NCBI GenBank assembly: GCA_031373665.1 | Contig: JANMMZ010000085.1 | Coordinates: 1,389 to 65,388, forward strand | Source of the DNA: Saprospiraceae bacterium | GTDB taxonomy: Bacteria; Bacteroidota; Bacteroidia; Chitinophagales; Saprospiraceae | Direction of reading: 5' to 3' | Length of the DNA: 64,000 bases | Shown here: piece after piece, positions 3,646 through 49,860 of the stretch | How positions within the stretch are numbered: the first letter of the stretch is position 1 | Layout: each line of letters opens with the position of its first letter | Translations under genes and position numbers: made by a program | The notes under the pieces: generated by a model | The model's database searches: none | Told to the model about the DNA's origin: nothing | The model's input: the letters and a program-made list of their open reading frames with translations, nothing else

Positions 3646-3696
3646 CATCATTGTGTTCACTTTCGCTCATCATGTGCGAAAGTGAACACAATGATG
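3646..3696. repeat. Perfect 21-bp inverted repeat with a 9-nt loop
   Basis: catcattgtgttcactttcgc (3646-3666) is the exact reverse complement of gcgaaagtgaacacaatgatg (3676-3696). The track ORF 3567..3761 is just a translation of this palindrome. Confidence 0.9.
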
Positions 3697-3896: not shown

Positions 3897-3971
3897 TTCA
3901 ATGATGGTGCAAATCCTACCCATCTGATGACTTCGAGTCATCAGATGGGTAGGATTTGCACCATCATTGAA
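3897..3971. repeat. Perfect 36-bp inverted repeat with a 3-nt loop, 20 nt downstream of the NTPase gene stop. Possibly a terminator or a REP-like element.
   Basis: Checked base by base: 3897-3932 pairs perfectly with 3936-3971 around the loop tcg. The arm ends carry CAATGATGG / CCATCATTG, a motif shared with the 3646-3696 palindrome. Confidence 0.9.
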
Positions 3972-3990: not shown

Positions 3991-6504
3991 TTAAACCAAC
4001 CCAAATTTCCCCGATTGCTTCACTTTTTCCACGATTTCATGTACTGTTGGTAACACTTCGGGCGGGATCCGGAGCAAAAGGTTATCCTCTGTTTTATTGG
4101 TGAGGATCAAGGTCGCGTAATAGATCAATTCATAGCGACTTTTGAGCATCTTACCATGCGCGGCAGATTCAAACAATGATAACACAAGGTGCTTTTGTTC
4201 CAAACAGAGTAGATCAGTGAAGAACGCTTCAAGGTATTCACCTGCACTGATTTCAAGGACATGCGCTATTTTTTCGGGCAAACCATCCATTATGCCGTTC
4301 CAAATTTCGACGAGTACTACATGTTGATATCTACTCTTATCGCCAGATTGGGCATAATATGCCCGGATATACTCTAAGGCTTGGGGGGCTTGTTGATTGG
4401 TTGAGTAATACAAAATGGCCAAATTATTTAAGGCATTTACATGACCTTTTTCAATAGATTTTAAATACCAGGATTCTGATTCTGTGTTTTTGCCTTGTTC
4501 TCTATACAAGTTTGCCAAATTATACAGGGCATTTATATCGCCTTTTTCAATAGATTTTAAATACCAGGATTCTGATTCTGCGTTTTTGCCTTGTTCGCTA
4601 TACAAGTTTGCCAAATTATTCAAGGCATCTACATGACCTTTTTCAATGGCTTGTAAATAATAGGACTCCGATTCCGCGTTTTTGCCTTGTTCGCGGTACA
4701 AATTTGCCAAATTATACAAGGCATCCACATGACCTTTTTCAATGGCTTGTAAATAATAGGATTCCGATTCCGCTTTTTTGCCTTGATCGCGGTACAAGTT
4801 TGCCAAATTATACAAGGCATTCACATGACCTTTTTCAATGGCTTGTAAATAATAGGATTCCGATTCCGCTTTTTTGCCTTGATCGCGGTACAAAATGGCC
4901 AAATTATTCAAGGCATCTACATTGCCTTTTTTAATGGCTTGTAGATAATGGGATTCCGCTTCCTTATACTTTTTTAATTCATGGTAACAATACGCCTGTA
5001 AAAAGAACTTCACCCCGTCGGCTTCATTTTCGATTTCATCTATTTTTTTTAAGGCCGCTTCGTAGCGATTTTCATCCCAGAGTTGATCTATTTCTGCTTT
5101 GATTTCACTGTATTTTCTCGGCAGTTCGCTATCCAGTCCCATTTCTTGCTGGAGTGCTAAGGTCTTATCAATCAGTGCATCGCGCTCCTGAGTACTGATG
5201 TATTTTGATTGAGACAACCCTTTACTCAACACAAAAGCCTTGTCGTAGCGCAATTGCCCTGATCCCAAAGCGGTTAGGTGCTGGGTTGTTAGGTCTTTGA
5301 GTTCGGTCGCATCGTACCAAGATTCCAAAAAATGGGTTAGGTATTTAGCCCGTCTCTTTTGATCGGGATTGCCTTGGGTAACAATCAGCCACATATTGAA
5401 AAATCGCTCCGAGATTCGGTACAAATGATTTTTTTTGCCTGTCGCAATGGTTTCTACGATCCCATATTGCTCCAATTGTCGGAGGTAAGAAGCGATGAGT
5501 TTGCTTTCCATTCGGCATTTTTCTACCAATACCTTAGTAGGAGCGGCCTCCCACCAAAAAGCCATTTCTTGGACGATTTTGCGCTGGGCAGCCGTCAGGG
5601 TGTTGAGCCGCTCTTGGTAAAGCGGCGAGGCGTTGTCCATCACTTTGCGCAGGTAGTCGAAGCCGAACTGCTTGGCATCGTGGAGGAGGAGTTGGATAAA
5701 AACCTGAAGGGCGCGGGGGAGTCCGTCAGTCAGGATACGGATGGCCTCTATCCGCCCCCGATACTGTAGGGCGTAATCGTGTAACACAGGCAAGTCCATC
5801 TCCGCACTCCAATGATTGAGCAGTCGGTGTATCTCTTCAAATTGTAATCCTTCTAAGCGGTGTCGCCTGAAAAACTCGTAAAAAGGCTTATCATACTGCC
5901 AAAAATGTTCGTCCATGCGGGTGCTACCACCGATGATTTGTAGGTCGTTGTAGTTGAGCAGGGTTTCGCGCAGCAAGTTTCCGTCGTCGTCGAAGTTTTC
6001 GAGGATGCGATCCAAGTTGTCCAACAGTAACACAACCCTTTTGCCAGAACCTTGCAGCAATTGGTGTATCTCGGCATAGAGGTAGCGGGTATAAGCCGAA
6101 TTGTCTTCAAAATCGTCAAAGTCGCGTAGTTTGGGGGCTTTGCCAAACCGCAATTGGAGTTCATGCAATACTTCAAACCACAAATCGGAGAGCCGATAAA
6201 TAGATGCCTGTTCCTCGGCTAAATTGATGGCGATATAACGACTGGCGAGGTCAGTATCTTCGTCAATCTCGATTTGGATGCGGCGGAGGAGGGTTGATTT
6301 TCCGCTGCCGCGTCGCCCCAATATCAACTCATGCTGTACGGGATCGGCGGGCTTTTTGCGCCGCAATTCCGCCGTGATGAGTTCAAATTCAGCGATTCGG
6401 ATTAAAAAGTTGCGTTTAATAACCTCTGGGCTGCTATTGGCCGACTGGTATAGGCTGAGCCTGTCCAGAAAAGAGGTAGGGCCGCTTAGCGCATGGTTGC
6501 TCAT
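3991..6504 (-). CDS. STAND-like P-loop NTPase with a winged-helix-like segment and C-terminal Sel1/TPR-like repeats
   Basis: Walker A LGRRGSGKSTLL and Walker B VVLLLDNLDR. The C-terminal half has six 32-aa repeats, YYLQAIEKGHV(D/N)ALYNLANLYR(D/E)QGK(K/N)AESES. Start moved from 6708 to the ATG at 6504 (MSNHALSGP...). The longer ORF would overlap the upstream gene, whose stop is at 6524-6526. Confidence 0.8.
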   Translation of the reverse strand: MSNHALSGPTSFLDRLSLYQSANSSPEVIKRNFLIRIAEFELITAELRRKKPADPVQHELILGRRGSGKSTLLRRIQIEIDEDTDLASRYIAINLAEEQASIYRLSDLWFEVLHELQLRFGKAPKLRDFDDFEDNSAYTRYLYAEIHQLLQGSGKRVVLLLDNLDRILENFDDDGNLLRETLLNYNDLQIIGGSTRMDEHFWQYDKPFYEFFRRHRLEGLQFEEIHRLLNHWSAEMDLPVLHDYALQYRGRIEAIRILTDGLPRALQVFIQLLLHDAKQFGFDYLRKVMDNASPLYQERLNTLTAAQRKIVQEMAFWWEAAPTKVLVEKCRMESKLIASYLRQLEQYGIVETIATGKKNHLYRISERFFNMWLIVTQGNPDQKRRAKYLTHFLESWYDATELKDLTTQHLTALGSGQLRYDKAFVLSKGLSQSKYISTQERDALIDKTLALQQEMGLDSELPRKYSEIKAEIDQLWDENRYEAALKKIDEIENEADGVKFFLQAYCYHELKKYKEAESHYLQAIKKGNVDALNNLAILYRDQGKKAESESYYLQAIEKGHVNALYNLANLYRDQGKKAESESYYLQAIEKGHVDALYNLANLYREQGKNAESESYYLQAIEKGHVDALNNLANLYSEQGKNAESESWYLKSIEKGDINALYNLANLYREQGKNTESESWYLKSIEKGHVNALNNLAILYYSTNQQAPQALEYIRAYYAQSGDKSRYQHVVLVEIWNGIMDGLPEKIAHVLEISAGEYLEAFFTDLLCLEQKHLVLSLFESAAHGKMLKSRYELIYYATLILTNKTEDNLLLRIPPEVLPTVHEIVEKVKQSGKFGLV
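4375..4950 (-). repeat. Six tandem 96-nt (32-codon) near-identical coding repeats of Sel1/TPR-like type
   Basis: Unit phase read directly: HY at 4950-4945 and the next YY at 4854-4849, so the period is 96 nt. Units are nearly identical at nucleotide level. The antisense track ORFs 4608..4934 and 4629..4820 are periodic shadows of this array. Confidence 0.9.
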
Positions 6505-6523
6505 ATTTGTCTGATGTGGGTAT

Positions 6524-7711
6524 TTATGCTTCATATACTGGGTTGTCGCGCTTCCAAAATGCTTGTAAAAAAGGAGAAATAAATACAAATCGGCCGCCCA
6601 AGTCAGTGATGTAACCGTCCTGTTCGAGGCCGCCCACCAATTCCATATATGTGTCTTTTTTGTTGTGCTTGATGGCCAAATCGTACAATTGTCGCGGGTT
6701 GATCTCATTTCGATGAGCGATATACACCAGTGTTTCCATCAAAAATGCGACATCCTCCTTGGTAAAATAGTCAGAGAGGCGGTTTTTCCATTCCTTGAAA
6801 TGGTCGCTGTTTTTGACCACCTTCTCAAAGGCATCATCAATATGTTGTGGCGTAATGACGATATTGTTTGCTTTTCGCGCAGCCCGGTTGATCTCATCCA
6901 ACATCAGGTTGAGAAAATAAGGAATGAAATAGTTGATCTTAGAAAGCAAGTGTTGGGTAAGAGGATCATCGTATTGAACACTAGCACTTTGGGTGGCCCA
7001 GTTGACATAATCGGCCGCTTCGCTAGGTGTCAATGCCTCGAAGGGTACGATCCCAAAGTCATTGATATCGGAAGTGCGCCCTTCTATAGTCTTCACGATG
7101 TGGTGAATGCCGACCGAACCTGCCAATACCAAACTAAAATGTTGTCGGATTTCTGGGTTTTGTCGCCACTCGCGCAGGCGATCCAAAATGCCGCTCGCTT
7201 CATTTTGTTTGCCTTTTTTATATAGATTGTTCAATATTTCGGGCAATTCATCCAAAAGCAGCACGACCTTTACCTTGTTTTGACCAATTTTGGGCAGAAT
7301 CTTATTGATTTCTTCCACGTAATTGATGGGCTTCTTTTCGCCAAATTTTACGCCCTCCAAGGTGATTTCTTCCACAGTAAGGTGTTTGAGGAGGTCGCCG
7401 AGCCAGTTTTTACCTTTTTCAAACTTGCTCAAACATTGTACGATCAGTTCAAAAAACTCTTTGTAAAACTCCGCTTCTGATTGTACGCCTTGTATATTTT
7501 TGAAAATACAACGGGTGTCCTGCGGGCAGTTTTTTTGCATGGCCAGCATGACCGATGATTTGCCCACCCTACGCGGGGCGGCCAAAAGCACATGATTGCC
7601 CTTCTGGGTTTCGGCCCATATTTGCGCCTCTATATCTGGGCGTGGGAAGTAATAATCTCCGATGGCGGTGTTTCCGATGATGATTTTCGGGTCTTTCCAA
7701 GTGGTGCTCAT
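6524..7711 (-). CDS. P-loop ATPase (archaeal-ATPase/AAA-like) with a C-terminal winged-helix-like region
   Basis: Walker A LLAAPRRVGKSSVM and Walker B VVLLLDELPE. Start placed at the ATG at 7711 (MSTTWKDPKIIIGN); the 17-codon upstream extension is unsupported. The gene ends 19 nt before the start of the next NTPase gene. Confidence 0.75.
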   Translation of the reverse strand: MSTTWKDPKIIIGNTAIGDYYFPRPDIEAQIWAETQKGNHVLLAAPRRVGKSSVMLAMQKNCPQDTRCIFKNIQGVQSEAEFYKEFFELIVQCLSKFEKGKNWLGDLLKHLTVEEITLEGVKFGEKKPINYVEEINKILPKIGQNKVKVVLLLDELPEILNNLYKKGKQNEASGILDRLREWRQNPEIRQHFSLVLAGSVGIHHIVKTIEGRTSDINDFGIVPFEALTPSEAADYVNWATQSASVQYDDPLTQHLLSKINYFIPYFLNLMLDEINRAARKANNIVITPQHIDDAFEKVVKNSDHFKEWKNRLSDYFTKEDVAFLMETLVYIAHRNEINPRQLYDLAIKHNKKDTYMELVGGLEQDGYITDLGGRFVFISPFLQAFWKRDNPVYEA

Positions 7712-7822
7712 TTTAGCAATAAATTTGTTGTTAAAAATATTTGACCGCAAAGTTATTGCCAATAATTTATAACAACAAATTTATTGCTAAAAATTATTAT
7801 TATTTTTTGAAACTTAGATTCC

Positions 7823-33566: not shown

Positions 33567-34646
33567 ATGGCGAAGTCAAATATTGAAAATGACGATATCA
33601 CTATCCTCAAACAGAAGGTTGATTTTTTAGAAAAGCGTCTAAGTAGTTATGAAGATATTAATAAAACACTATCAACGCAAGTTTTAGGAAAATGGAATGT
33701 AATTGGGCATACGACCAAATTTTTACAATGGGCAGCCGGAATCGTATTCGCTGTTACATTTGGACTATATTGGTTGGTTTATGATAATTTAAGAGATTTT
33801 AAAGAAGAATCAAATCAAAATAAGATAGAAATTACAAAATTGTCAAAACTTTCAAGTTCACTAATTTCTGTTACATCAGATTTACATACAATGAACCTTG
33901 ATTACAATCGTAAACAGTATGAAAGGGTTTTAGACAAAGCAAAAAAGTCTCTTGAAAAGATTGAAGAGGCAAAAAATAATTTATTTTTAAATAATTATGA
34001 CGAACTTAAAATGACATTACTATCTTTTAGGGGAGTAGCTTACTATCAAAAATACCTAGATGATAAAAAAAATAGCTACCCGAATAAAAACGACTTGATC
34101 AATATGATTTCAATTGGGGATACCATGGTAGCACTTAACCCGAATCATTGGAAGGGTTATCAAATTCGTGGGTTTGGCAACTGGGAGAACTCCTCTATAA
34201 ACGGAAGAATATCTAATGATAATGATTACAATAAAATAAAAAGTGATTTGGATAGGTCGGTACAACTAGGAGAAGAATTTAATACAAATACTATAAATTT
34301 AATCGAATTGTCATTTGTAAACTTTCGTTTTGATGAATCTAAATATTATATTACTATCTTTGAAGATAACTTTGGCAATAAGTTTCAAAGATATCGAGAT
34401 AAAAATGGTCAAGTCGCTTATTTATTTTATAAACACATGACTAACTACATTTTATCCAAAGACAAAAATGAACTTAAGGAATTAGATAAGAGCATTGCTG
34501 CTTTGAAAAATAAAGGAGTTCAAAATTTCGATAACACGAATTTAGAAGCATGGTTCATTAATGCCGAAGATAATCCCAATTTACTTCGAGGGATTAATCC
34601 AAATTTACTAAAAACCTGGCGCAAAAAAATATTTAAAACCCCCTAA
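33567..34646 (+). CDS. Hypothetical membrane-anchored protein with an N-terminal coiled-coil segment, one TM helix and a helical repeat-like body
   Basis: 359-aa ORF with AT-rich codon usage like the neighbouring R-M genes. One hydrophobic helix, FLQWAAGIVFAVTFGLYWLVY. I recognise no family. Confidence 0.6.
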   Translation: MAKSNIENDDITILKQKVDFLEKRLSSYEDINKTLSTQVLGKWNVIGHTTKFLQWAAGIVFAVTFGLYWLVYDNLRDFKEESNQNKIEITKLSKLSSSLISVTSDLHTMNLDYNRKQYERVLDKAKKSLEKIEEAKNNLFLNNYDELKMTLLSFRGVAYYQKYLDDKKNSYPNKNDLINMISIGDTMVALNPNHWKGYQIRGFGNWENSSINGRISNDNDYNKIKSDLDRSVQLGEEFNTNTINLIELSFVNFRFDESKYYITIFEDNFGNKFQRYRDKNGQVAYLFYKHMTNYILSKDKNELKELDKSIAALKNKGVQNFDNTNLEAWFINAEDNPNLLRGINPNLLKTWRKKIFKTP

Positions 34647-34997
34647 ACATCTAACAATGCACTGTCTAAAATGTCCGACTAAGCGCGTCCACGTAGCCAG
34701 TGCCCCCGTTAGTTAGCACCAACCATAGGGGCAGCCAAGCATAGTTCCAGATAATAATATTGATTTTCACCAGTTTTTAAGAATAGCGGACAGGCTGAGC
34801 GGAGACAGTAAAGCTTGTGCCCGCAGGCCCCCGCTCCAATTTTGGCAGGTAACCCGGCGCGGCATTGAATATAATATTGACTTACAAGTGGTACACTTTT
34901 CGTGATTAGTGGCAAAATGGAAAACTGTACCTCAACTTTTGACAATAACCAAATTATAAATTGTACCTTAGCAGCCTAAAAAATAAAGACATTCAGC

Positions 34998-36659
34998 ATG
35001 AGTGAAGATTATAAAAGGGGGTTGGAATCGCAACTTTGGAACATTGCCAATACGCTACGTGGCAAAATGAATGCAGACGAATTTCGTGACTACATTTTGG
35101 GTTTCATTTTCTATAAATACCTAAGCGAGAAAATGAACATTTTCGCTGACGAAATCTTGAAACAAGACAATATCAAGTTTCAAGAAATAACACCAAAGAC
35201 TACAGACGGGGCAGCATTTATTGAAGCCATAAAAGAAGAAGCCTTGGAAAAATTGGGCTACTTTCTAAGACCTGAAGAACTGTTTACAGAAGTTGCCAAA
35301 CGAGGAAATTTAATTACGAATGACGAATTAGAAGTGACGAATGAAAAAGAAGACTCAAAAAAAGTAATTCGTAATTCTCAATTCGTAATTAATGAAACCA
35401 ATTTCATTTTAGAAGATTTACAAAAAATCCTGATCAATATCCAGTTGAGTACCATGGGTACTGAAAGCGAAGAAGATTATGAGAATCTCTTTGAGGATAT
35501 GGATTTGAATAGTTCAAAATTAGGCAAAACTCCAGAGGCAAGAAATGCAATCATTGCAAAAGTGCTAACGCACCTTGACAAAATTGATTTCATGTTAGTT
35601 GATCAACATGGCCGTGCTCATCAACATGAAAATGATGTTTTGGGCGATGCTTACGAATATTTGATTGGACAATTTGCCAGTGGTGCAGGAAAAAAAGCAG
35701 GTGAATTTTATACACCGCAACAAGTCTCTACAATTTTGGCAAAAATAGTAACCACAGGAAAACAAAAACTAAAATCAGTTTATGACCCTACTTGTGGTTC
35801 GGGTTCTTTGTTGCTTCGTGTGGCAAGGGAGGTAGAAGATGTAAGTAATTTTTACGGACAAGAAATGAACCGTACTACTTACAACCTTGCCCGCATGAAT
35901 ATGATTTTGCACGGGGTGCATTACCGCCAATTTGATATTAAACAGGACGATACACTCGAACACCCACAGCATATTGACCAACAATTTGAAGCCATTGTAG
36001 CCAATCCACCATTTTCGGCTCAATGGAGTGCCAACCCATTGTTTACCAGTGACGACCGTTTTAGCCAATACGGACGACTTGCACCCAGTAGTAAAGCCGA
36101 CTTTGCTTTTGTGCAACACATGATTTACCATTTGGCAGACAATGGCACGATGGCCATTGTTTTGCCGCACGGTGCTTTGTTTAGAGGTGGTGCAGAGCAA
36201 CACATTCGAACGTATTTGATAGAAAACAAAAACTTTTTAGATGCCGTCATTGGCTTGCCAGCCAATATATTTTATGGTACCAGTATTCCAACGTGTATTT
36301 TGGTTTTCAAAAAGTGTAGAGAAAACCCTGATGACATTTTGTTCATAGATGCCAGCCAGCATTTTGAGAAAGTGAAAACCCAAAATGTTTTAAGGCCCAA
36401 AGACATTGATTTAATTATTGACACGTACCGTAAGAGAACGGAATTGCCAAAGTACAGCAAGAAAGCAACATTAGAGGAAATTGCTAAAAACGATTACAAC
36501 CTGAATATACCAAGGTATGTAGATACCTTTGAGGCAGAAGAAAATATAGACATTGAAGCCATCGCCACAGCACTCAAAGCATTGGATGAATCAATGGCGG
36601 ATACTGACAAAACCATTGCACAGTTTTGTAAGGAATTGGGTATTTCAACACCTTTTTAA
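34998..36659 (+). CDS. hsdM: Type I restriction-modification system, DNA methyltransferase subunit M
   Basis: 553 aa. AdoMet motif I VYDPTCGSGSLLL and catalytic motif IV IVANPPFSAQW. N-terminal HsdM_N-like LWNIANTLRGKMNADEFRDYILGFIFYKYLSE. Confidence 0.95.
   Translation: MSEDYKRGLESQLWNIANTLRGKMNADEFRDYILGFIFYKYLSEKMNIFADEILKQDNIKFQEITPKTTDGAAFIEAIKEEALEKLGYFLRPEELFTEVAKRGNLITNDELEVTNEKEDSKKVIRNSQFVINETNFILEDLQKILINIQLSTMGTESEEDYENLFEDMDLNSSKLGKTPEARNAIIAKVLTHLDKIDFMLVDQHGRAHQHENDVLGDAYEYLIGQFASGAGKKAGEFYTPQQVSTILAKIVTTGKQKLKSVYDPTCGSGSLLLRVAREVEDVSNFYGQEMNRTTYNLARMNMILHGVHYRQFDIKQDDTLEHPQHIDQQFEAIVANPPFSAQWSANPLFTSDDRFSQYGRLAPSSKADFAFVQHMIYHLADNGTMAIVLPHGALFRGGAEQHIRTYLIENKNFLDAVIGLPANIFYGTSIPTCILVFKKCRENPDDILFIDASQHFEKVKTQNVLRPKDIDLIIDTYRKRTELPKYSKKATLEEIAKNDYNLNIPRYVDTFEAEENIDIEAIATALKALDESMADTDKTIAQFCKELGISTPF
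35312..35392. mobile_element. 81-nt palindromic AATTACGAAT-family element embedded in frame in hsdM
   Basis: taattacgaat (35312-35322) and attcgtaatta (35382-35392) are exact reverse complements. Internal gacgaat/attcgta repeats are present. 81 nt is 27 codons, translated as ITNDELEVTNEKEDSKKVIRNSQFVIN. Confidence 0.8.
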
Positions 36660-36660
36660 T

Positions 36661-37255
36661 TGTCTGAATCACAGATTTAATGGATTTAATGATTTCACGG
36701 AATATGAACACAGCATTAAAATACAAGGACATAACCGAAAAAATATTAGGTGCTTCGTTTGAAGTGCATAAATTTTTAGGCAACGGCTTTCAAGAAGTCA
36801 TTTATCAGAGAGCATTGGCTTGGGAAATGAAGCAGAAAGGATTAGAATTTGCCAGAGAAATAGAACAAGATATTTTTTATAAGGATTTGCCAGAACCTAT
36901 TGGTACAAGAAGAGCAGATTTTGTAGTAGAGGGAAAAATTTTGGTGGAGTTAAAAGCCGTTATTCAATTAGAAGACGTGCATTTAGCACAAGCTTTGAAC
37001 TACCTCAAAGCCTATAAATTAGAAGTTGGTTTATTAATAAATTTTGGGAGCAAATCGCTCACTTTTAAACGTATTGTACTATGATAAAACAAAATAGTCA
37101 GCATCACGGATTGAAAAATAGTCAGCATCACGGATTAAAAAATAGTCAGAATCACGGATTAAACGGATTAAAGGATGACACTGATTTAAAATCGGAAAAT
37201 AATCAAAAAAAATCCGTGAAATCTGTGCAATCCTTTAAAATCCGTGATTCAGACA
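36661..37255. mobile_element. Composite of a GxxExxY ORF bracketed by TGTCTGAATCAC(G/A)GATT-family repeats
   Basis: The left end tgtctgaatcacagattt begins at 36661, 2 nt after the hsdM stop. The right side has three 24-nt tandem repeats (agtcag(c/a)atcacggatt at 37096, 37120 and 37144). It then carries a full element body ending aatccgtgattcagaca at 37239-37255, the reverse complement of the left end. Confidence 0.7.
36680..37084 (+). CDS. GxxExxY family protein (PD-(D/E)XK nuclease-like fold)
   Basis: Contains the GFQEVIY (G-x-x-E-x-x-Y) motif. Family-typical ILGASFEVHKFLG and ADFVVEGKILVELKAV (D...ExK-like) segments, and C-terminal LINFG. An alternative start is the ATG at 36704 (MNTALKYKD). 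The stop TGA overlaps the hsdS ATG as ATGA at 37081-37084. Confidence 0.85.
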   Translation: MDLMISRNMNTALKYKDITEKILGASFEVHKFLGNGFQEVIYQRALAWEMKQKGLEFAREIEQDIFYKDLPEPIGTRRADFVVEGKILVELKAVIQLEDVHLAQALNYLKAYKLEVGLLINFGSKSLTFKRIVL

Positions 37256-38532
37256 ACATTCCAGTATTGCGTTTTCCTGAGTTTAATGAGGAATGGAAAG
37301 AAAAGAAGTTGGGGGAAGTAGCGACCAATAAGTCAGGTAAATATAATCCTGAAAAAGAACGAGAATCTGTGAAATGTATTGAATTAGAACATTTATCTTC
37401 GGATTCAAGCCAATTACTGGGATATATTGATGGAAAAAATTCAGGAAGTATTAAGAATAAATTTGATAAAGGCGATGTGCTTTTTGGAAAATTAAGACCT
37501 TATCTAAAAAAGTATTTACTAGCACCTTTTGAAGGAGTTTGTTCGTCAGAAATTTGGGTATTGAAAGGGCTGAATATTTCAAATGACTTTTTATTTAGGA
37601 TAGTGCAAACAGATTCATTTATTGATTTAGCAAATCAATCAAGTGGCTCTAAAATGCCAAGAGCAGATTGGAATGTTGTTGAAAATGGAATATTCTCTTT
37701 CCCCACCCTACCCGAACAAACCAAAATCGCCACCTTCCTCACCGCAGTAGATGAAAAAATCCAAGCCCTCAAAAAGAAAAAAGGCCTTTTAGAAGATTAC
37801 AAAAAAGGGGTGATGCAAAAACTCTTCTGTCTGAATCACGGATTAGATGGATTTAAAGATGACACAGATTTTGACAATGAATCCGTGGAATCTGCGCAAT
37901 CCTTAAAAATCCGTGATTCAGACAATGTACGCTTCAGACAAAAAGATGGCAGCAACTTTCCAGATTGGGAAGTGAAGAAGTTGGGGGAGGTGGCAAAAAG
38001 GAAAACATTGAAAAATAAAGAAGGGAATACAAATGTTCTTACAATTTCTGCACAATATGGATTGATAAGCCAATTAGAATTTTTCAATAAATCTGTTTCT
38101 GCGAAAGATGTAACAGGGTATTATTTATTAGAAAATGGAGATTTTGCATACAATAAAAGTTATTCAAATGGTTATCCAATGGGTGCAATTAAGTGTTTAA
38201 ATAGATATGGAAAAGGTGTAGTTTCAACATTGTATATCTGTTTTAAATTTAATGAAGTGATAAATAATTCATTTATGGAGCATTTTTTTGAAACAGGTAT
38301 TCATAATAGTGAAATTGAAAAAGTAGCACAGGAAGGAGCAAGAAATCATGGTTTGTTGAATATTGGATTAGAAGATTTTTTCAATATTGCAATATCAATC
38401 CCCTGCCTCAAAGAACAAACCGCCATCGCCAATTTCCTATCCGCCCTAGACGAAAAAATAAACCATACGCAAACCCAAATAACCCAAACCGAAACGTGGA
38501 AAAAGGGGCTTTTACAAAAAATGTTTTGTTAA
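37081..38532 (+). CDS. hsdS: Type I restriction-modification system, specificity subunit S
   Basis: Two target-recognition domains. Each is preceded by (L)RFPEF..W..KKLGEV or FPDWEVKKLGEV and followed by the conserved helices LPEQTKIATFLTAVDEKIQALKKK and LKEQTAIANFLSALDEKINHTQ. The first ~60 codons and codons ~250-282 are translations of the repeat element. Confidence 0.9.
   Translation: MIKQNSQHHGLKNSQHHGLKNSQNHGLNGLKDDTDLKSENNQKKSVKSVQSFKIRDSDNIPVLRFPEFNEEWKEKKLGEVATNKSGKYNPEKERESVKCIELEHLSSDSSQLLGYIDGKNSGSIKNKFDKGDVLFGKLRPYLKKYLLAPFEGVCSSEIWVLKGLNISNDFLFRIVQTDSFIDLANQSSGSKMPRADWNVVENGIFSFPTLPEQTKIATFLTAVDEKIQALKKKKGLLEDYKKGVMQKLFCLNHGLDGFKDDTDFDNESVESAQSLKIRDSDNVRFRQKDGSNFPDWEVKKLGEVAKRKTLKNKEGNTNVLTISAQYGLISQLEFFNKSVSAKDVTGYYLLENGDFAYNKSYSNGYPMGAIKCLNRYGKGVVSTLYICFKFNEVINNSFMEHFFETGIHNSEIEKVAQEGARNHGLLNIGLEDFFNIAISIPCLKEQTAIANFLSALDEKINHTQTQITQTETWKKGLLQKMFC
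37828..37924. mobile_element. 97-nt solo MITE-like copy of the TGTCTGAATCACGGATT-family element, in frame inside hsdS
   Basis: tgtctgaatcacggatt (37828-37844) and aatccgtgattcagaca (37908-37924) are exact reverse complements. The body aligns with 37144-37255. It is translated as CLNHGLDGFKDDTDFDNESVESAQSLKIRDSDN, at the junction between the central conserved helix and TRD2. Confidence 0.85.
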
Positions 38533-38544
38533 AATTAATTACAA

Positions 38545-39336
38545 ATGAAGAATTACAAATTACAAATAATACCCACTGATTTGCTCCCTGTTTATTTGGA
38601 GCAAGTGCCTAAGGGTTTGCAGAAAGCATTTGATGCCTTGAAGGACGCAGAGATTTCTACTGATACTTTTAGTTTTTACACTTCGGTATCAGCTATGGCA
38701 TCGAGCAAAATTGAGGGCGAACAAATGGAAATTGACAGCTACATCAAACACAAAATGTTGAATATTGAGTATCTGGAAGACTTGGTTGAAAAACCAAACG
38801 ATTTGTATAATGCTTATCTGTTTGCCCAAAAAAATGAACTCACCGAAAAAAATTTTTTAGAAACCCATAAATTATTGTCAGCACATCTTTTAGCCCCCAA
38901 TAAAAGAGGCGTTTGCAGAACAGGCAATATGGTGGTAATGGAGCATAAAACATTCCGCATACAATATGAAGCTGCCTTGGGGAGCGAAGTAAAACCCTTG
39001 TTTGCCAGACTTTGGAAAGATATTGAGCAACTAAAAAAAGAAAGATTAAGCATAGAAGAAACATTCTTTTTTGCATCATTCATTCATATTGTTTTTGTAA
39101 ATATTCACCCTTTTGAAGATGGAAACGGAAGAGCAGGAAGATTATTAGAAAAATGGTTTTTGGCTCAAATGCTGGGCGAAAAAGTTTGGTATATACAAAG
39201 TGAATTGAATTATTATAAAAACGTAAACAACTATTACAAAAATCTGAACAGGCTCGGAATTTTTTACGAAAAATTGGATTACAACCAAGCTATTCCATTT
39301 CTATTAATGCTACCAAGTTCAATTACGAATATTTAA
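38545..39336 (+). CDS. Fic family protein (AMPylase-type fold)
   Basis: Fic motif HPFEDGNGRAGR, matching HxFx(D/E)GNGRxxR. An upstream SSKIEG matches the [S/T]xxxE[G/N] inhibitory-helix motif. The last codons (SSITNI*) are encoded by the first AATTACGAAT repeat. Confidence 0.9.
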   Translation: MKNYKLQIIPTDLLPVYLEQVPKGLQKAFDALKDAEISTDTFSFYTSVSAMASSKIEGEQMEIDSYIKHKMLNIEYLEDLVEKPNDLYNAYLFAQKNELTEKNFLETHKLLSAHLLAPNKRGVCRTGNMVVMEHKTFRIQYEAALGSEVKPLFARLWKDIEQLKKERLSIEETFFFASFIHIVFVNIHPFEDGNGRAGRLLEKWFLAQMLGEKVWYIQSELNYYKNVNNYYKNLNRLGIFYEKLDYNQAIPFLLMLPSSITNI

Positions 39337-39372
39337 TTACGAATGTTTAATTACGAATATTTAATTACGAAT
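39321..39372. repeat. Four AATTACGAAT repeats with a 14-nt period, upstream of the four-helix-bundle ORF
   Basis: aattacgaat occurs at 39321, 39335, 39349 and 39363. Confidence 0.9.
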
Positions 39373-39379
39373 CACAAAA

Positions 39380-39805
39380 ATGAAAACTGACAATATTATA
39401 CAACAAAAAAATTATGCTTTTGCAGTGAGAATTGTAAAAGTGTATCAATATTTATGTGACGAGAAAAAAGAGTTTACTTTAAGCAAACAGCTTTTAAGAT
39501 GCGGCACATCGGTTGGTGCAAATGTTGAAGAAGCCATTGGTGGGCAAAGTGAAAAGGATTTTTTTGCCAAACTAACCATTTCATACAAAGAAGCAAGGGA
39601 AACACATTATTGGATACGGTTATTGACAGACACTGGTTATTTAACAAAAGAGCAAAGCGAAAGTCTGTTGAATGACATAACAGAAATTCAAAAAATAATT
39701 GGAAGTATTCAACGCACAATCAAATCTCGTAATTCAAAATTAATTACGAATGACGAATTCAAAATTACGAATGACGAATTTAAAATTACGAATGAAAAAT
39801 CATAA
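39380..39805 (+). CDS. Four-helix-bundle protein (family formerly called 23S rRNA intervening-sequence protein)
   Basis: Family-typical AFAVRIVKVYQYL..., LSKQLLRCGTSVGANVEEAIGGQSEKDFFAKLTISYKEARETHYWIRLL. The C-terminal LITNDEFKITNDEFKITNEKS is encoded by AATTACGAATGACGAATT repeats. Confidence 0.85.
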   Translation: MKTDNIIQQKNYAFAVRIVKVYQYLCDEKKEFTLSKQLLRCGTSVGANVEEAIGGQSEKDFFAKLTISYKEARETHYWIRLLTDTGYLTKEQSESLLNDITEIQKIIGSIQRTIKSRNSKLITNDEFKITNDEFKITNEKS

Positions 39806-39923
39806 TAAAAATATAAAAACTATAACTCAATTAAAATACAAAATCGTAATTCGTAATTCACAATTCGTAATTAAAAATTCGTAATTCGTAATTAAAAATT
39901 CGTAATTAAAAATTCGTAATTAA
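39727..39923. mobile_element. Palindromic AATTACGAAT / ATTCGTAATT repeat block between the four-helix-bundle ORF and hsdR
   Basis: aattacga at 39743, 39763 and 39784 forms the left arm, with a ~20-nt period. Seven tcgtaatt copies lie between 39844 and 39921 and form the right arm, in inverse orientation. The last repeat abuts the hsdR ATG at 39924. Confidence 0.8.
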
Positions 39924-42869
39924 ATGAGCAGACAGTCGGAACAAATATTAGAAGAACAACTCATTGCCCAGTTGCAAAAATTGGGGTACGGCTATATTGT
40001 CATCAATAGTGAAAAAGATGTATTGCTCAACCTCAAAGGGCAATTGGAAAAACACAACCAATCCGCCCTAACTAAAACAGGCAATGCACAATTTACCCAA
40101 ACAGAGTTTGAGAAGATTTTAAACCTGTTGAGCAAAGGGTCTGTTTTTGAAAAATCAAAAATGCTTCGCCAAAAGCAACACCTTGTTCGGGAGCATGGAG
40201 ACAACCTGTATTTTGAATTTTTGAATACGGAGCATTGGTGTCAAAATGAATATCAAGTAACCAACCAAGTAAGCCAGGAAGGAAAATTCAAAAACCGTTA
40301 TGATGTAACCATTCTCATCAACGGTTTGCCATTGGTGCAAATAGAACTGAAGCGCAGAGGCTTAGAATTGAAAGAAGCGTTCAATCAAATCAACCGTTAT
40401 CAACGGCATTCGTTTGGTGCAAACGCTGCTTTGTTTCAGTATGTTCAAATCTTCATTATCAGCAATGGCGTAAATACAAAGTACTACGCCAACAACCGCA
40501 ACCAAAGTTTCAAACAAACTTTCTATTGGACAGATGCAGCAAACAAAAGGGTTTCTAATATACTAAATGGCTTTACGGATACATTTTTAGAGCCTTGCCA
40601 CTTGAGCAAAATGATATGCAAGTACATTGTGCTGAACGAAGCCTATAAAATTCCAATGGTACTTCGTCCGTATCAGTTCTATGCTGTGGAAGCTTTAATA
40701 GAAAGAGTAAAGTCACAAGGCCTTACGAGTCAACCCAAAAACGGTTATATATGGCATACCACAGGTTCGGGTAAAACCCTCACAAGTTTTAAAGCCAGTC
40801 AGATTTTAATGGCTTTGCCACAAGTTCATAAAGTGGTTTTTGTGGTGGATAGAAAAGATTTGGATTACCAAACGACTAAAGAATTCAACAGTTTTCAAGA
40901 AGGTTGTATTGACGGAACAGACAATACGCAAAACTTAGTAAAGCAATTTACAGGCACTTATGTTGACAAAAAAGGAGAGGCCAAAAATTCCAAACTCATA
41001 GTAACCACCATTCAAAAACTCAATACTGCAATCAGCAAATTGAAGTATGAGGCTAAAATGGCTGAACTGAAAGACAAACGCATCATTTTTATTTTTGACG
41101 AGTGCCACAGAAGCCAATTTGGCGATACTCACAAAAGAATAAAGGACTTTTTCAATAATGCTCAATTGTTTGGGTTTACAGGCACTCCCATTTTTGCAGA
41201 CAATGCTGCTAAAAACGAACACGGCAAGCGAACCACCAAAGATTTATTTGAAGACTGTTTGCATAAGTATGTAATTACAGATGCTATCAAAGACGAAAAT
41301 GTATTGAAGTTTTCGGTTGAATATGTAGGCAGATATAAGCATAAAGACGGACGAGAGACCAATATTGATATTGAGGTAGAAGACATTGACACTAAAGAGT
41401 TGATGGAAGATGAAACCCGTTTAGAAAAAATAACAGATTACATTATTGCACACCACAACCGCAAAACACACAGCCGAGCGTTTACGGCTATGTTTTGTAT
41501 CAATAATGTGCCTACGCTTATCAAATACGTTGATTTATTCAAAAAGAAAAAAGCCGAAGGATTACACAATTTGAACATTGCAACCATATTCAGTTATGGG
41601 GCAAATGAAGATGATGCAGATGCCAACGGCTTTATCAACTTTGAACAAGATTTTGACAATGTTGATTTGAATCTAGTGGCAGAATCAAAGCCCGAATATA
41701 AAATCAATTCGCATAGCAGAGACAAGTTAGAAGAATTTATAGGTGATTACAACAAACTATTTGGTGATAATTTCACGACCAAAGACAGCCAAAGTTTTTA
41801 CAACTATTACAACGACATTTCAAAGAAAGTCAAGGAACGCAAAATTGACATTTTAATAGTGGTAAATATGTTCCTTACGGGTTTTGACAGCCCAACATTG
41901 AACACCATGTATGTGGACAAAAACCTACGATATCACGGACTAATACAAGCATATAGCCGAACCAACAGAATTTTAAACGAGCAAAAAAGCCAAGGAAATA
42001 TTGTTGCGTTTCGCAACCTCAAAAACCGCACAGACGAAGCGATTACTTTATTTAGCAACAAAGAAGCGATTGAAGTAATCATCATGAAACCGTATGAAGA
42101 CTACACAGCCAAGTTTGACGAAGCCTTTGAACATTTAATTTCTTTGACACCAACTACAGACAGCGTTGATGATTTACAAACAGAAGATGACGAACTTGAA
42201 TTCATAAAGGCTTTCAGAGATTTGATGAGAATAAAAAATGTTCTCACTGCATTTTCAGACTTCAAATGGGAAGACTTGGAAATGACCGAGCAACAATTTG
42301 AAGATTTTAAAAGCAAGTATCTCGACCTTTACGACAAAGTAAAAAGCAACCACCAAAAAGAGAAGGTTTCCATTTTAGAAGATGTGGATTTTGAGTTGGA
42401 ATTAATTCACCGTGACGAAATAAATGTTGCTTATATCATTCAACTTTTAATCAAACTAAAAGCACAAGCTCAAAAAGACACGACAAAAGCAGAACAAGAA
42501 ATATTCAACTTGTTAAGCACCGAAACGACTTTACGTAGCAAACGAGAGTTGATAGAAAAATTTATACAAGAGAATTTGCCAGTAATTGTGGATACAGACG
42601 AAGTTGCACCGGCGTTCGACAAATATTGGAACGAAGAACAGCAAAAGGCATTTTCTAAATTGGTGATTGAAGAAAGCCTTTCACCCGACAAGACAGAAAA
42701 ATTAATTGAAGACTATTTGTTTGCAGAAAGGCCACCATTAAGAGACGAAGTTTTAGAACTCATTGAAGGCGAAAAACCAAGTTTGCTTCAAAGAAAAAAA
42801 CTGGGTGAAAGAATTTTAAAACGTATCATGGACTTTGTAGAAACGTTTATAAACGGAATGGCAGGATAG
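39924..42869 (+). CDS. hsdR: Type I restriction-modification system, endonuclease/translocase subunit R
   Basis: 981 aa. N-terminal nuclease-like region, helicase motif I WHTTGSGKTLTSF, motif II IFIFDECHRSQ, and later motifs TGTPIF and VNMFLTGFDSP. Confidence 0.95.
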   Translation: MSRQSEQILEEQLIAQLQKLGYGYIVINSEKDVLLNLKGQLEKHNQSALTKTGNAQFTQTEFEKILNLLSKGSVFEKSKMLRQKQHLVREHGDNLYFEFLNTEHWCQNEYQVTNQVSQEGKFKNRYDVTILINGLPLVQIELKRRGLELKEAFNQINRYQRHSFGANAALFQYVQIFIISNGVNTKYYANNRNQSFKQTFYWTDAANKRVSNILNGFTDTFLEPCHLSKMICKYIVLNEAYKIPMVLRPYQFYAVEALIERVKSQGLTSQPKNGYIWHTTGSGKTLTSFKASQILMALPQVHKVVFVVDRKDLDYQTTKEFNSFQEGCIDGTDNTQNLVKQFTGTYVDKKGEAKNSKLIVTTIQKLNTAISKLKYEAKMAELKDKRIIFIFDECHRSQFGDTHKRIKDFFNNAQLFGFTGTPIFADNAAKNEHGKRTTKDLFEDCLHKYVITDAIKDENVLKFSVEYVGRYKHKDGRETNIDIEVEDIDTKELMEDETRLEKITDYIIAHHNRKTHSRAFTAMFCINNVPTLIKYVDLFKKKKAEGLHNLNIATIFSYGANEDDADANGFINFEQDFDNVDLNLVAESKPEYKINSHSRDKLEEFIGDYNKLFGDNFTTKDSQSFYNYYNDISKKVKERKIDILIVVNMFLTGFDSPTLNTMYVDKNLRYHGLIQAYSRTNRILNEQKSQGNIVAFRNLKNRTDEAITLFSNKEAIEVIIMKPYEDYTAKFDEAFEHLISLTPTTDSVDDLQTEDDELEFIKAFRDLMRIKNVLTAFSDFKWEDLEMTEQQFEDFKSKYLDLYDKVKSNHQKEKVSILEDVDFELELIHRDEINVAYIIQLLIKLKAQAQKDTTKAEQEIFNLLSTETTLRSKRELIEKFIQENLPVIVDTDEVAPAFDKYWNEEQQKAFSKLVIEESLSPDKTEKLIEDYLFAERPPLRDEVLELIEGEKPSLLQRKKLGERILKRIMDFVETFINGMAG

Positions 42870-43228: not shown

Positions 43229-44362
43229 ATGGACAACAAACCTGAGATAATTCAAACAATCATTGAAAATATTTTTTTCGCTATACGTGATACATTAAAC
43301 AAAATAATACTTTTTATCTTGTTGACAATCATTAGTTCTTGCAACGCGCAAGAAAAAACAAACACATTTAATCCCCCCAATATTTCCAAATCAAGTCCAA
43401 CAGTAATAAAAAACTTTAAGTCCATTGCTGTAGCTCCTGATTTTGATACCACCTTAGTCAGTCAATATATCCGAAGTATTTTTCAGGATTCTAAAGGGAA
43501 TTTATGGTTTGGTACGTTAGGCGAAGGCGTAGTGAGATATGATGAAAAAACATTGACCTACTTTTCCAATCCTGATGGTTTTAATAACAACACAGTTTAT
43601 GCCATCAATGAAGATAAAAATGGTAATCTTTGGTTTGGGACTGACCAAGGCGTTTATAAATATGATGGAAAAACTTTTAAAAATTACAATCAAAAAGATG
43701 GACTAAACCATATAGACATAAGTCGAAAAAGCATCCTTGTTGACAAATCAGGTACTATTTGGGTGGGCACACATGGCGGCGTTTACCAATATGACCCGTC
43801 TGCCGATAGCAAAGGCGGTCAAAGTTTTTCATTATTTCAACTACTTCCTTCTATAAATATTGCTGGCATCATGGAAGACAAAAGTGGCAACATTTGGTTT
43901 GCTTCTTCGAATAAAGGTGTCTTTCGCTATGATGGAAAAACAATTACCAATATTGCAGAAAAGGAAGGTTTGGGAGAGAACTATGCAGGAGGAATCGCAG
44001 AGGATAAAGATGGAAATGTGTGGTTTACTATGAAAAACGGCATTTGCAAATATGATGGAAAAACCTTAACAGAATATACCCCCAAAGACGGATTAGGCGG
44101 AACTGAATTTTGGGGAATGATTATAGAACAGTCAGGTATTGTTTGGGTTACAGCCCGAGGCAGTACTACTAGATTTGATCCTTCTATTCCCTTACCAAAT
44201 CCCAAAGCATTTACGGTGTTTACAGTAAAAGATGGTCTTAATTGCTGTGTTCAAAGTATGTATCAAGATAAGTCAGGAAATATGTGGTGGGGTGCAGGAT
44301 CAGGTCTTTTCCGGTTTGATGGAACGCGCTTTTATCAAGTTAAACAGAATGGCCCTTGGTAG
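43229..44362 (+). CDS. Two-component-regulator-propeller (Reg_prop) repeat protein, probably a lipoprotein
   Basis: At least six repeats of the form GN(L/I/V)WFGT..GV..YDGKT(F/L/I)(T/K)(N/Y). N-terminal hydrophobic segment ending IISSC, lipobox-like. Confidence 0.8.
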   Translation: MDNKPEIIQTIIENIFFAIRDTLNKIILFILLTIISSCNAQEKTNTFNPPNISKSSPTVIKNFKSIAVAPDFDTTLVSQYIRSIFQDSKGNLWFGTLGEGVVRYDEKTLTYFSNPDGFNNNTVYAINEDKNGNLWFGTDQGVYKYDGKTFKNYNQKDGLNHIDISRKSILVDKSGTIWVGTHGGVYQYDPSADSKGGQSFSLFQLLPSINIAGIMEDKSGNIWFASSNKGVFRYDGKTITNIAEKEGLGENYAGGIAEDKDGNVWFTMKNGICKYDGKTLTEYTPKDGLGGTEFWGMIIEQSGIVWVTARGSTTRFDPSIPLPNPKAFTVFTVKDGLNCCVQSMYQDKSGNMWWGAGSGLFRFDGTRFYQVKQNGPW

Positions 44363-44368
44363 TACAAA

Positions 44369-44415
44369 AAGAGGCCGTCACATAAGTTCAACTTACATGA
44401 CGGCCTCTTTTTGTT
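44369..44415 (+). terminator. Intrinsic terminator
   Basis: aagaggccgtca (44369-44380) pairs with tgacggcctctt (44398-44409), followed by a T-run. It lies immediately after the stop at 44362. Confidence 0.75.
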
Positions 44416-45792: not shown

Positions 45793-46078
45793 TTGGTAAA
45801 AGGCTGTTGCCATTTACCCTACTTCAATGGCCTTATCTAAATTCCGACGGAGCACTCAAAAAAATGCGTGCCGCAGGCAAAACTTGGCTTTTTAAAAACT
45901 GTTTGAGCCATGATCAAGTGTCGGGGCGCAGCCCCCGCTCCATCATGCGGCGAGTTTTTTTAAAAAGATAAGTTTTAGCGTTTTTTTGAGTAGCGCAGTC
46001 GTGGAATTTAGATAAAGCCAAGTCTTTTGGGTTACTTTTTTGACGAAAAAAGTGACAAAAGCAAGGAAGCCTGTAGTG
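45793..46078 (+). repeat. ~286-bp structured (rod-like hairpin) repeat, copy 1
   Basis: Aligns at roughly 90 percent by eye with 49575-49860 in the same orientation. Internal inverted repeats: aattccgac..ctcaaaaaaatgc versus gc.tttttttgag..gtcgtggaatt, plus the cggggc...gcccc hairpin. A 15-nt exact direct repeat ttttatcttgctttt lies at 45777-45791 and 46138-46152. Confidence 0.85.
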
Positions 46079-47869: not shown

Positions 47870-48217
47870 ATGAATAAGGTATTATTGACGCATTCTTTAG
47901 GGCGGGCAAAATTACGAATTAGTAATGGTGAAACAATCAGATAAAAAGGATAAGTTATTATTTCGCCGTTACTTGGCTCGGAAGGAATAACCACGTTAAA
48001 ATTAATTTAAAAGCGGTTAAGCAGTGGTTAATGTTTAGCAAAGCCTTTGGATGTTCATTTTAATAAGATATTGACAATCAATTTATTATAAAAAAAACAT
48101 TCAAAAAACCAAGAAATACTAAGCAACTTTACTACACATTGTTACGTCTAATCACTGCAAGGAACTAGAAATACTAGTACTTTTGCCTTATTCACCATCA
48201 AATAATATTAATCAATT

Positions 48218-49335: not shown

Positions 49336-49383
49336 GCCTTTATCAATAGTTTAAGAAGTGCATCACATCGGCTGCACTATATA

Positions 49384-49430
49384 AAAAATAGCACACCTAA
49401 CACGACGCTTGTTAGATGTGCTATTTTTTT
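49384..49430 (+). terminator. Intrinsic terminator
   Basis: aatagcacacctaaca pairs with tgttagatgtgctatt with one mismatch, followed by T7. It lies ~50 nt after the stop at 49335. Confidence 0.75.
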
Positions 49431-49574: not shown

Positions 49575-49860
49575 GGTTGTTGCTATTTACCCTACTTCAA
49601 TGGCCTTATATAAATTCCGACGGAGCACTCAAAAAAATGCTTGCCGCAGGCAAAAATTGTCTTTTTAAAAACTTTCTGAGCCATGACCAAGAGACGGGGC
49701 AAAGCCCCGCTCTATCATGCGGCGAGTTTTTTAAAAAAGATAAGTTTTAGCATTTTTTTGAGTAGCGCAGTCGTGGAATTTATATAAAGCCAGGTCTTTT
49801 TGGTTACTTTTTTGACGAAAAAAGTGACAAAAGCAAGGGAAAATGTAGTGTTTTTTCTAA
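49575..49860 (+). repeat. ~286-bp structured repeat, copy 2
   Basis: See copy 1. The track ORF 49484..49750 is a translation artefact of this repeat. Confidence 0.85.

Follow-up and report, generated by a model that had tools for sequence, protein, structure and literature searches.

The 64-kb stretch of a Saprospiraceae bacterium genome analysed here (64,000 nt of contig JANMMZ010000085.1; hereafter the window, to which all coordinates refer unless a locus is named) contains, between positions 34000 and 44000, a restriction-modification operon made up of hsdM, PDDEXK_3, hsdS, Fic, a four-helix gene and hsdR. Within hsdM lies a short hairpin built of KACGAAT heptamers (K = T or G), which is translated in frame as part of the HsdM protein. 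The reading that we favour, and consider rather probable, is that this hairpin is a passenger from a dispersed KACGAAT family that was copied into a loop of hsdM and filtered by selection. The features on which the argument turns are the following:

34998-36659, + strand: hsdM, the host gene, 553 aa, with the HsdM_N and N6_Mtase domains intact (Pfam profiles, structure alignment)
35310-35392, + strand: KACGAAT-family hairpin in hsdM, containing no open reading frame (ORF) of its own, with 12-nt perfect termini, translated as LITNDELEVTNEKEDSKKVIRNSQFVI(N)
35310-35330, + strand: left arm of the hairpin, TTAATTACGAATGACGAATTA, with the heptamers TACGAAT and GACGAAT (inverted-repeat search)
35372-35392, + strand: right arm of the hairpin, TAATTCTCAATTCGTAATTAA (inverted-repeat search)

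The full sequence of the element at 35310-35392 is TTAATTACGAATGACGAATTAGAAGTGACGAATGAAAAAGAAGACTCAAAAAAAGTAATTCGTAATTCTCAATTCGTAATTAA. Its outer 12 nt are TTAATTACGAAT at 35310-35321 and the exact reverse complement, ATTCGTAATTAA, at 35381-35392, which gives a length of 83 nt from end to end; beyond these perfect termini the arms reach 21 nt at 86% complementarity. Each arm contains 2-3 KACGAAT units arranged head-to-tail and ends in TTAATTA. A first-pass annotation, made from the sequence alone, had rightly described the termini as exact reverse complements, but its length of 81 nt and its coordinates were off by 1-2 nt, since the 11-nt termini that it used correspond to 35311-35391. The internal sub-repeats that it reported are present: the left half has two copies of GACGAAT, and the right half two of ATTCGTA. 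Folded as RNA, the hairpin reaches -17.1 kcal/mol (z = -3.35), and none of 200 shuffled sequences was equally stable. A terminator scan found none at the hairpin. A comparison with Rfam gave no family above chance across 34900-40100, where only chance-level hairpin matches were seen, and the region is not within 23S rRNA.

The hsdM frame crosses the hairpin as L-ITNDELEVTNEKEDSKKVIRNSQFVIN, the sole stop-free frame of the six. A foreign palindromic repeat is therefore translated in the HsdM_N region of the ORF at 34998-36659, as had been proposed from the sequence, and the tryptic peptides expected from the translated insert are GNLITNDELEVTNEK and NSQFVINETNFILEDLQK. The N6_Mtase profile was covered from position 2 to 310 of 311, and positions 1-134 of the HsdM_N profile are spread over hsdM residues 9-192. 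Compared with solved HsdM structures (3LKD, and the EcoR124 HsdM in 7BST), the protein has about 26-27 extra aa, and its alignment to them is interrupted exactly at residues 105-138, which have no counterpart there. This places the hairpin in a variable connection between two conserved segments of the N-domain.

What normally occupies this connection was surveyed in 227 close HsdM homologues (81-100% identity), using the stretch between the conserved KRG and TNFILEDL, whose length ranges from 9 to 32 residues. In 223 of the 227, an unrelated loop, 9-31 aa long, stands where the window has the hairpin; most of these loops are acidic and have 15-17 aa (e.g., KGDNEDDVDKFDESK). The ITNDE...FVIN segment is found in four proteins only, namely that of the window, P0118, P0120 and P0122, which represent four 90%-identity clusters with one member sequence each. 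In all four, the underlying DNA is the hairpin with identical perfect 12-nt termini. Conservation of the peptide in homologues that lack the palindrome, named in the first-pass annotation as the finding that would speak against an inserted element, was thus not seen.

The nearest relatives of the window HsdM are 93-94% identical to it outside the loop (10.6% different in DNA) and have the loop KGxNEDDVDKFDESK. The window has 30 codons at this point and its nearest relative 15, so that HsdM gained 15 aa on balance while about 13-15 resident codons were lost. The event was therefore not the insertion of exactly 27 codons that had been proposed, but the replacement of a 15-aa acidic loop. The frame is kept because the replacement as a whole (30 codons for 15) is a multiple of three, which the 83-nt hairpin itself is not. 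When the junctions of the window and of two further hsdM loci with the element (L001 and L002) were compared with the empty alleles of L123, L004, L124 and L176, no target-site duplication was found; 13-14 resident codons are deleted, and there is no consistent direct repeat.

The element appears to have arrived at this loop more than once. When only positions outside the loop are used to build a tree, carriers and non-carriers are interleaved: P0120 is 95.7-95.9% identical to the element-free proteins P0123 and P0125 and 93.9% identical to the carrier P0118, and P0122 is likewise nearer to the same two element-free proteins than to P0118. The window HsdM is only 83% identical to any of these five. 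Since the non-carriers keep a homologous acidic loop, loss of the element cannot account for the distribution of carriers, and a single origin followed by vertical descent is rejected in view of the interleaved non-carriers with the ancestral loop. The junctions also vary among carriers (after GN or GNGD, and before ETNF, QTNF or NF), as do the hairpin loops, and the hsdM copies of the window, L001 and L002 have only the arms in common. The elements of the window and L001 are 15.6% different, less than their host genes (22.9%); between L002 and L001, the interior of the peptide differs by 24.7%, against 12.5% for the remaining protein. The simplest reading of these sequence comparisons is that three independent hairpin replacements have probably occurred at one hsdM loop.

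Another clade of homologues (P0185, P0195, P0197, P0217 and P0223) has a different repeat in the same loop (RDALQGVSLQGVS..., translated as RDALQGVS...). The lodging of distinct repeats in one loop indicates that the HsdM loop is a permissive site that repeatedly captures hairpin repeats. The repeat of the P0185 clade probably comes from a hairpin family of the form GAGACGCA...TGCGTCTC, which was also seen in L084, L092 and L112.

A close relative of the hsdM hairpin lies in the same operon. The exact 12-mer TTAATTACGAAT occurs 10 times in the window, as against 0.02 times in shuffled sequence, and all 10 copies are within the restriction-modification operon: at the ends of the hsdM hairpin, in an array at the end of Fic, and in a palindrome at 39740-39925 that spans the C-terminus of the four-helix gene and the hsdR start codon. 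With up to one mismatch, a 10-mer of the terminus occurs 31 times in the window, where 8.7 are expected. A single lone copy of AATTACGAAT at 47910 was considered as a further family member and put down to chance. The repeats around the four-helix gene, and a degenerate array upstream of Fic, are arranged as follows:

38537-38567, + strand: decayed family array (AATTACAAATGAAGAATTACAAATTACAAAT, each CG now CA) running from the hsdS stop to the Fic start, with the Fic start codon inside it (repeat search)
39318-39378, + strand: four tandem 14-nt units (TTAATTACGAATAT) forming the left side of a long stem and supplying the Fic C-terminus and stop (repeats, fold)
39380-39805, + strand: four-helix-bundle gene (Pfam 23S_rRNA_IVP, NCBIfam TIGR02436) enclosed by the stem as its loop; the final ~21 codons are translated array (profiles)
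39740-39895, + strand: nested local hairpin with 52-nt arms, 81% complementary, the closest relative of the hsdM copy (inverted-repeat search, alignment)
39864-39925, - strand: right-hand array of ATTCGTAATTAA units, which closes the long stem and ends at the hsdR ATG (39924) (repeats, fold)

The long stem comprises 48 nt that are 92% complementary to 39878-39925, with 499 nt between the arms, and the region 39300-39935 folds at -141.7 kcal/mol (z = -8.35). The four-helix hairpin lies 4.4 kb downstream of the hsdM copy, and the two are closely similar: 35364-35392 matches 39847-39875 at 28 of 29 positions, the left 37 nt of the hsdM element match the inner four-helix hairpin at 32 of 37 positions (the hsdM loop being shorter), and the 21-nt left arm agrees with its counterpart in the four-helix-gene hairpin at 20 of 21. 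This similarity of the arms to those of the neighbouring inner hairpin suggests that the hsdM copy was made within the operon. The C-terminal readings to which the first-pass annotation had drawn attention belong here too, since Fic ends in ...SSITNI and the four-helix protein in ...LITNDEFKITNDEFKITNEKS, both derived from the same family as the hsdM hairpin. The association is not confined to the window. A four-helix gene stands between forward and reverse arrays also in L118, L032, L075 and L025, which come from unrelated taxa; at these loci a forward array is followed by the gene, and the gene by a reverse array whose terminal ATTCGTAATTAA closely precedes the start codon of the next gene.

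Repeats of this heptamer family are not peculiar to the present genome but occur across phyla. A 19-mer of the arm, TTAATTACGAATGACGAAT, served as a census probe in a collection of species-representative genomes and was matched exactly at at least 118 loci in more than 10 phyla, whereas about 4-12 would be expected by chance from base composition. The hosts include Bacteroidota (many orders), Nostoc, Aulosira, Chloroflexota, Planctomycetota, Acidobacteriota, Verrucomicrobiota, Hyphomicrobiales, several candidate-phyla-radiation lineages, Margulisiibacteriota, Saganbacteria and others. Despite the AT-rich repeat, G+C is at least 55% at 20 of these at least 118 loci. Among the 119 occurrences listed, 33 come directly after a long ORF, whose stop codon is often the TAA of TTAATT, 24 sit 2-20 nt upstream of a divergent start codon, and 57 abut a stop or start codon. 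In 26 of the 119 an inverted partner lies within 400 nt, and 70 have three or more in-phase units, the number at genome loci ranging from 2 to 19.

Eleven of the 119 listed occurrences are in frame inside long ORFs. The in-frame hosts include XseA, an RlmI-like methyltransferase (in two genera), LepA, an MqnA-like enzyme, TatD and LeuRS, and in the six in-frame hosts that were examined with Pfam the domain matches span or flank the insert. In the RlmI-like gene, two Chloroflexota genera (L040 and L044) share an in-frame KACGAAT array followed by a CTCCCCTG-type array, which indicates that such inserts can be inherited through speciation. In L107, a primase-like ORF contains a second hairpin in frame, built of a related heptamer (VTSYELQVTNDVPSVTRNSSLVTT). 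In a collection of viral contigs the 19-mer was found once only, at 10899-10917 of L125 (IMGVR_UViG_2524614876_000001), so that phages are no obvious vehicle for its spread.

Compact hairpins of the hsdM type were sought in metagenomes as TTAATTACGAAT, 35-65 nt and ATTCGTAATTAA, and 50 loci were obtained. These hairpins are 62-89 nt long, their lengths leave remainders of 0, 1 and 2 on division by three in 8, 16 and 26 cases, respectively, and the number of units per arm varies. Their loops are unrelated except at orthologous loci. None of the 50 lies in a long ORF, most being wedged between a stop codon and a start codon or another stop, and only seven have a stop-free frame of any kind. These statistics argue that the KACGAAT family has no built-in compatibility with coding sequence. 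The property of in-frame stealth that had been attributed to the element is therefore not a property of the family, whose members are not of lengths divisible by three. The ITNDE reading recurs because it is the sole stop-free frame of the arm. At the protein level, a word search of the database with a 51-aa composite of the translated element gave no candidates, and an exhaustive HMMER search with the 30-aa peptide returned one repeat-rich protein. KACGAAT repeat strings were found in no paper of the literature searched.

On the passenger reading, a resident KACGAAT stem-loop would have been copied into hsdM in an event that also removed the native acidic loop. The copying may have proceeded through break repair, template switching, ectopic conversion of a resident hairpin or another route that needs no transposase, and this would explain both the lost resident sequence and the lack of a target-site duplication. 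For such a copy to survive, three things would have to coincide: the frame would be preserved, the one stop-free frame would be the one used, and a tolerant surface loop would be hit. Because HsdM is needed to protect the cell from HsdR, only frame-keeping, stop-free events in a permissive loop would survive. The product would be a hydrophilic segment of ~27 aa in a 30-aa surface loop, presumably a neutral passenger, as no function of its own is indicated. The hairpin in the mRNA could have a modest effect on translation or stability, although nothing indicates one.

Several points weigh against this account. The copying route is one that we infer rather than one observed directly, and a scan of metagenomes for the hsdM/hairpin junction gave no match, and hence no polymorphic pair of filled and empty alleles. 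The copy counts for the source genome cover the 64-kb window alone. The 12-nt termini are perfect in all four hsdM copies despite their fast-changing interiors, which could reflect selection on the stem (and so a function rather than a pure passenger), conversion by other copies, or independent origin. Targeting through microhomology with TGACGAA, a motif that the empty loops of L004 and L123 contain, has been considered; the case is weak, and the motif is absent from L176 and from the empty allele nearest P0120. Finally, the AlphaFold2 model of HsdM has a mean pLDDT of 39.5, was left unused and cannot place the loop; poor as it is, it has a coil between helices 92-103 and 138-153, which is a hint at most.

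The other explanations differ mainly in what is held to have moved or made the hairpin. A classical miniature inverted-repeat transposable element (MITE) would be a non-autonomous derivative of an insertion sequence (IS), mobilised in trans by a transposase specific for the TTAATTACGAAT termini. The first-pass annotation had called the element MITE-like, and the label fits its perfect 12-nt terminal inverted repeats, small size and multiple copies; there is also a bigger ORF-bearing relative with the same ends, and insertions recur at differing sites and in differing genomes. It does not fit with respect to target duplication, conserved core or transposase. Resident sequence was deleted at the hsdM junctions instead of a target site being duplicated, the 50 hairpins with identical termini have unrelated loops and span 62-89 nt, and the ORF enclosed by the repeats encodes a four-helix-bundle protein, not a transposase. 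Pfam detects no transposase among the eight neighbouring ORFs, about 10 kb on each side of the operon, and a single IS family would not usually have identical repeats in more than 10 phyla. A MITE is therefore an unlikely explanation. Rather doubtful, if less so than a MITE, is a cassette resembling the intervening sequences (IVSs) of 23S rRNA. Here, the KACGAAT stem with its four-helix (Avd-like, S23p) gene would be the autonomous form and the ORF-less hairpins its miniature derivatives; spread would require the four-helix protein, possibly through RNA, and the stems would be putative RNase III substrates. The bracketing of the gene by forward and reverse arrays in the window and at four loci of unrelated taxa accords with this, as does the long-range stem that encloses the whole four-helix ORF, and the 23S IVSs already known, stem-loops that contain an S23p ORF and are cut by RNase III, have long been suspected of mobility (PMC4990558). 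The gene adjoins an array at 5 of the at least 118 loci (the four bracketed ones and L011), as against two at which it lies kilobases away. The operon even contains a parallel, in that the PDDEXK_3 gene lies within TGTCTGAATC... inverted repeats and hsdS carries an ORF-less hairpin. However, more than 90% of the array loci listed have no four-helix gene near them, and some four-helix genes are flanked by unrelated heptamers (L120, L048 and the right side of L011). The link may instead reflect a shared preference for intergenic niches, and the four-helix bundle has no known catalytic activity.

Two further explanations dispense with an invading element or give it a role, and both seem highly improbable. 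The hairpin might have grown in place from the codons of the acidic loop (GAC GAA = Asp-Glu), through heptamer slippage and local inverted duplication. TGACGAA in the empty loops of L004 and L123 would provide a seed, and heptamers are the commonest long simple repeats of prokaryotes, ascribed to slippage in the work of Mrazek 2007 as reported in PMC4679880. But the family has identical termini and arms at other places in this operon and in other phyla, no such seed exists in the empty allele nearest P0120, and three lineages would need to converge on the same 12-nt termini. Alternatively, the insert might be a functional module, either as a new HsdM surface loop (for subunit contacts or evasion of anti-restriction proteins) or as an mRNA or DNA hairpin that tunes hsdM expression or permits phase variation through heptamer slippage. 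That the same HsdM loop has been remodelled repeatedly, that the outer 12 bp of the stem are constant in all four hsdM copies while their interiors diverge, and that a changed number of 7-base units would shift the frame could all be read in this way. Against it, the tandem units, only two per arm, are too few for efficient slippage, the interior of the peptide evolves faster than the rest of the protein (the 24.7% versus 12.5% of L002 and L001), the carriers are four among 227, each the single member sequence of its cluster, and the family is normally intergenic. A wider scheme, likewise rather doubtful, would treat both the KACGAAT hairpins and the GGATT-type hairpins of the same operon (see below) as miniatures of cross-phylum IVS-like cassettes, whose autonomous forms carry either a four-helix (Avd/S23p-like) gene or a GxxExxY nuclease gene. 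Non-transposase copying, possibly RNA-mediated or nuclease-triggered, would then place them in intergenic junctions, in rRNA and occasionally in protein loops.

The setting of the operon is itself distinctive. It has 31-37% G+C and its flanks have 42-50%, a difference that points to acquisition as an island by horizontal transfer. No recombinase was detected with Pfam among the eight large neighbouring ORFs, about 10 kb on each side of the operon, and a shufflon or phase-variable type I system was rejected, since neither a recombinase nor another hsdS was seen nearby. At 36660-37256 and 37828-37924 lies a second family of repeats, whose 7-nt units are of the GGATTWA type and whose termini read TGTCTGAATCACGGATT.... 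It encloses the PDDEXK_3/GxxExxY gene in an inverted repeat (36660-36678 and 37238-37256, 95%). In the middle of hsdS it takes the form of an ORF-less hairpin of 97 nt, read in frame, whose 17-nt arms are perfect, and it also supplies the hsdS N-terminus. The PDDEXK_3 genes in L001, L002, L004 and L123 are flanked by the same GGATTWA-type arrangement. In L176, whose homologous operon lacks the hsdM element, a Y1_Tnp (RAYT-like) gene at 5970-6760 lies between hsdS and hsdR and is flanked by inverted REP-like GCTCCGTAGGAGCGACCTGT, which differs greatly from the KACGAAT hairpins. The junctions of these hsd operons thus gather several kinds of small selfish elements.

Outside the operon, an unrelated, internally palindromic dispersed repeat is present in two copies (45810-46040 and 49583-49812, 96% over 231 nt). 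Its inverted termini are 18 nt long (TGGCCTTATCTAAATTCC / GGAATTTAGATAAAGCCA), and as a candidate MITE it is stronger than the hsdM element. Long near-perfect palindromes were noted at 3897-3971 (perfect 36-nt arms and a 3-nt loop), 3646-3696, 7711-7792, 44364-44414 and 49383-49429; one palindrome lies just after the gene at 43229-44362 and is a candidate terminator.

The single hsdM copy is probably of little consequence in itself, and the cross-phylum family and its link to an IVS-type gene are more notable. In-frame palindromic repeats have mainly been treated as a peculiarity of Rickettsia, and here a heptamer hairpin yields the same outcome. The exact repeat occurs in Bacteroidota, Cyanobacteria, Chloroflexota, the candidate phyla radiation, Planctomycetota and others, with essential proteins among the insertion hosts, and the passage of short repeats between phyla and into genes can thus be studied in a definite family that can be searched for. 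Its physical link to four-helix (23S-IVS-protein) genes provides a testable lead on the long-open origin of rRNA intervening sequences. For annotation, it means that ITNDE...IRNS.FVIN tails and loops in database proteins are translated repeats, not conserved motifs.

Among known systems, MITEs and REPIN/RAYT elements (PMC10969869, PMC3116915) resemble the KACGAAT family in being small multicopy hairpins with inverted termini, mostly intergenic, that have a larger ORF-bearing relative. They differ from it in that no target-site duplication, transposase or RAYT partner was found for the KACGAAT elements, which also have no conserved full-length sequence. The 23S rRNA IVSs (PMC4990558) are matched by the region 39318-39925 and by L118, L032, L075 and L025, where an inverted-repeat stem surrounds a four-helix-bundle ORF. 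Here, however, the setting is a protein-coding operon instead of rRNA, the stems consist of heptamer arrays, and the hsdM copy has no ORF.

Rickettsia palindromic elements (RPEs) are short, palindromic dispersed repeats that lie in frame in unrelated genes, including housekeeping genes (Ogata et al. 2000, 2002, as summarised in PMC10969869). As in the RPEs of that summary, the hsdM hairpin is translated in frame at a position compatible with the fold, and family copies are likewise read in frame in the XseA, LepA, LeuRS, TatD, RlmI-like and MqnA-like proteins. RPEs are described there from Rickettsia, at about 100-150 bp and with a family-specific consensus, whereas elements of the hsdM type measure 77-83 nt and have heptamer arms and non-conserved loops. 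Unlike RPEs, the KACGAAT family occurs in more than 10 phyla, is mostly intergenic, and consists largely of copies with stops in all frames. Given the different 7-nt unit structure and host range, homology between the two is not expected.

The cyanobacterial short tandemly repeated repetitive (STRR) sequences and the TAACTGA repeats of Beggiatoaceae, Cyanobacteria and Bacteroidetes are short arrays of 7-nt units near start and stop codons, whose patchy distribution across phyla suggests horizontal spread with no known vehicle (PMC4679880). The KACGAAT family shares with them the head-to-tail 7-nt units, the location at gene boundaries and the stops that limit overlap with genes, the hsdM copy being an exception in its location. 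It differs from them in its KACGAAT unit, in arrays that are often inverted pairs forming hairpins with TTAATTA ends, in its tie to four-helix-bundle genes, and in its in-frame copies inside conserved proteins.

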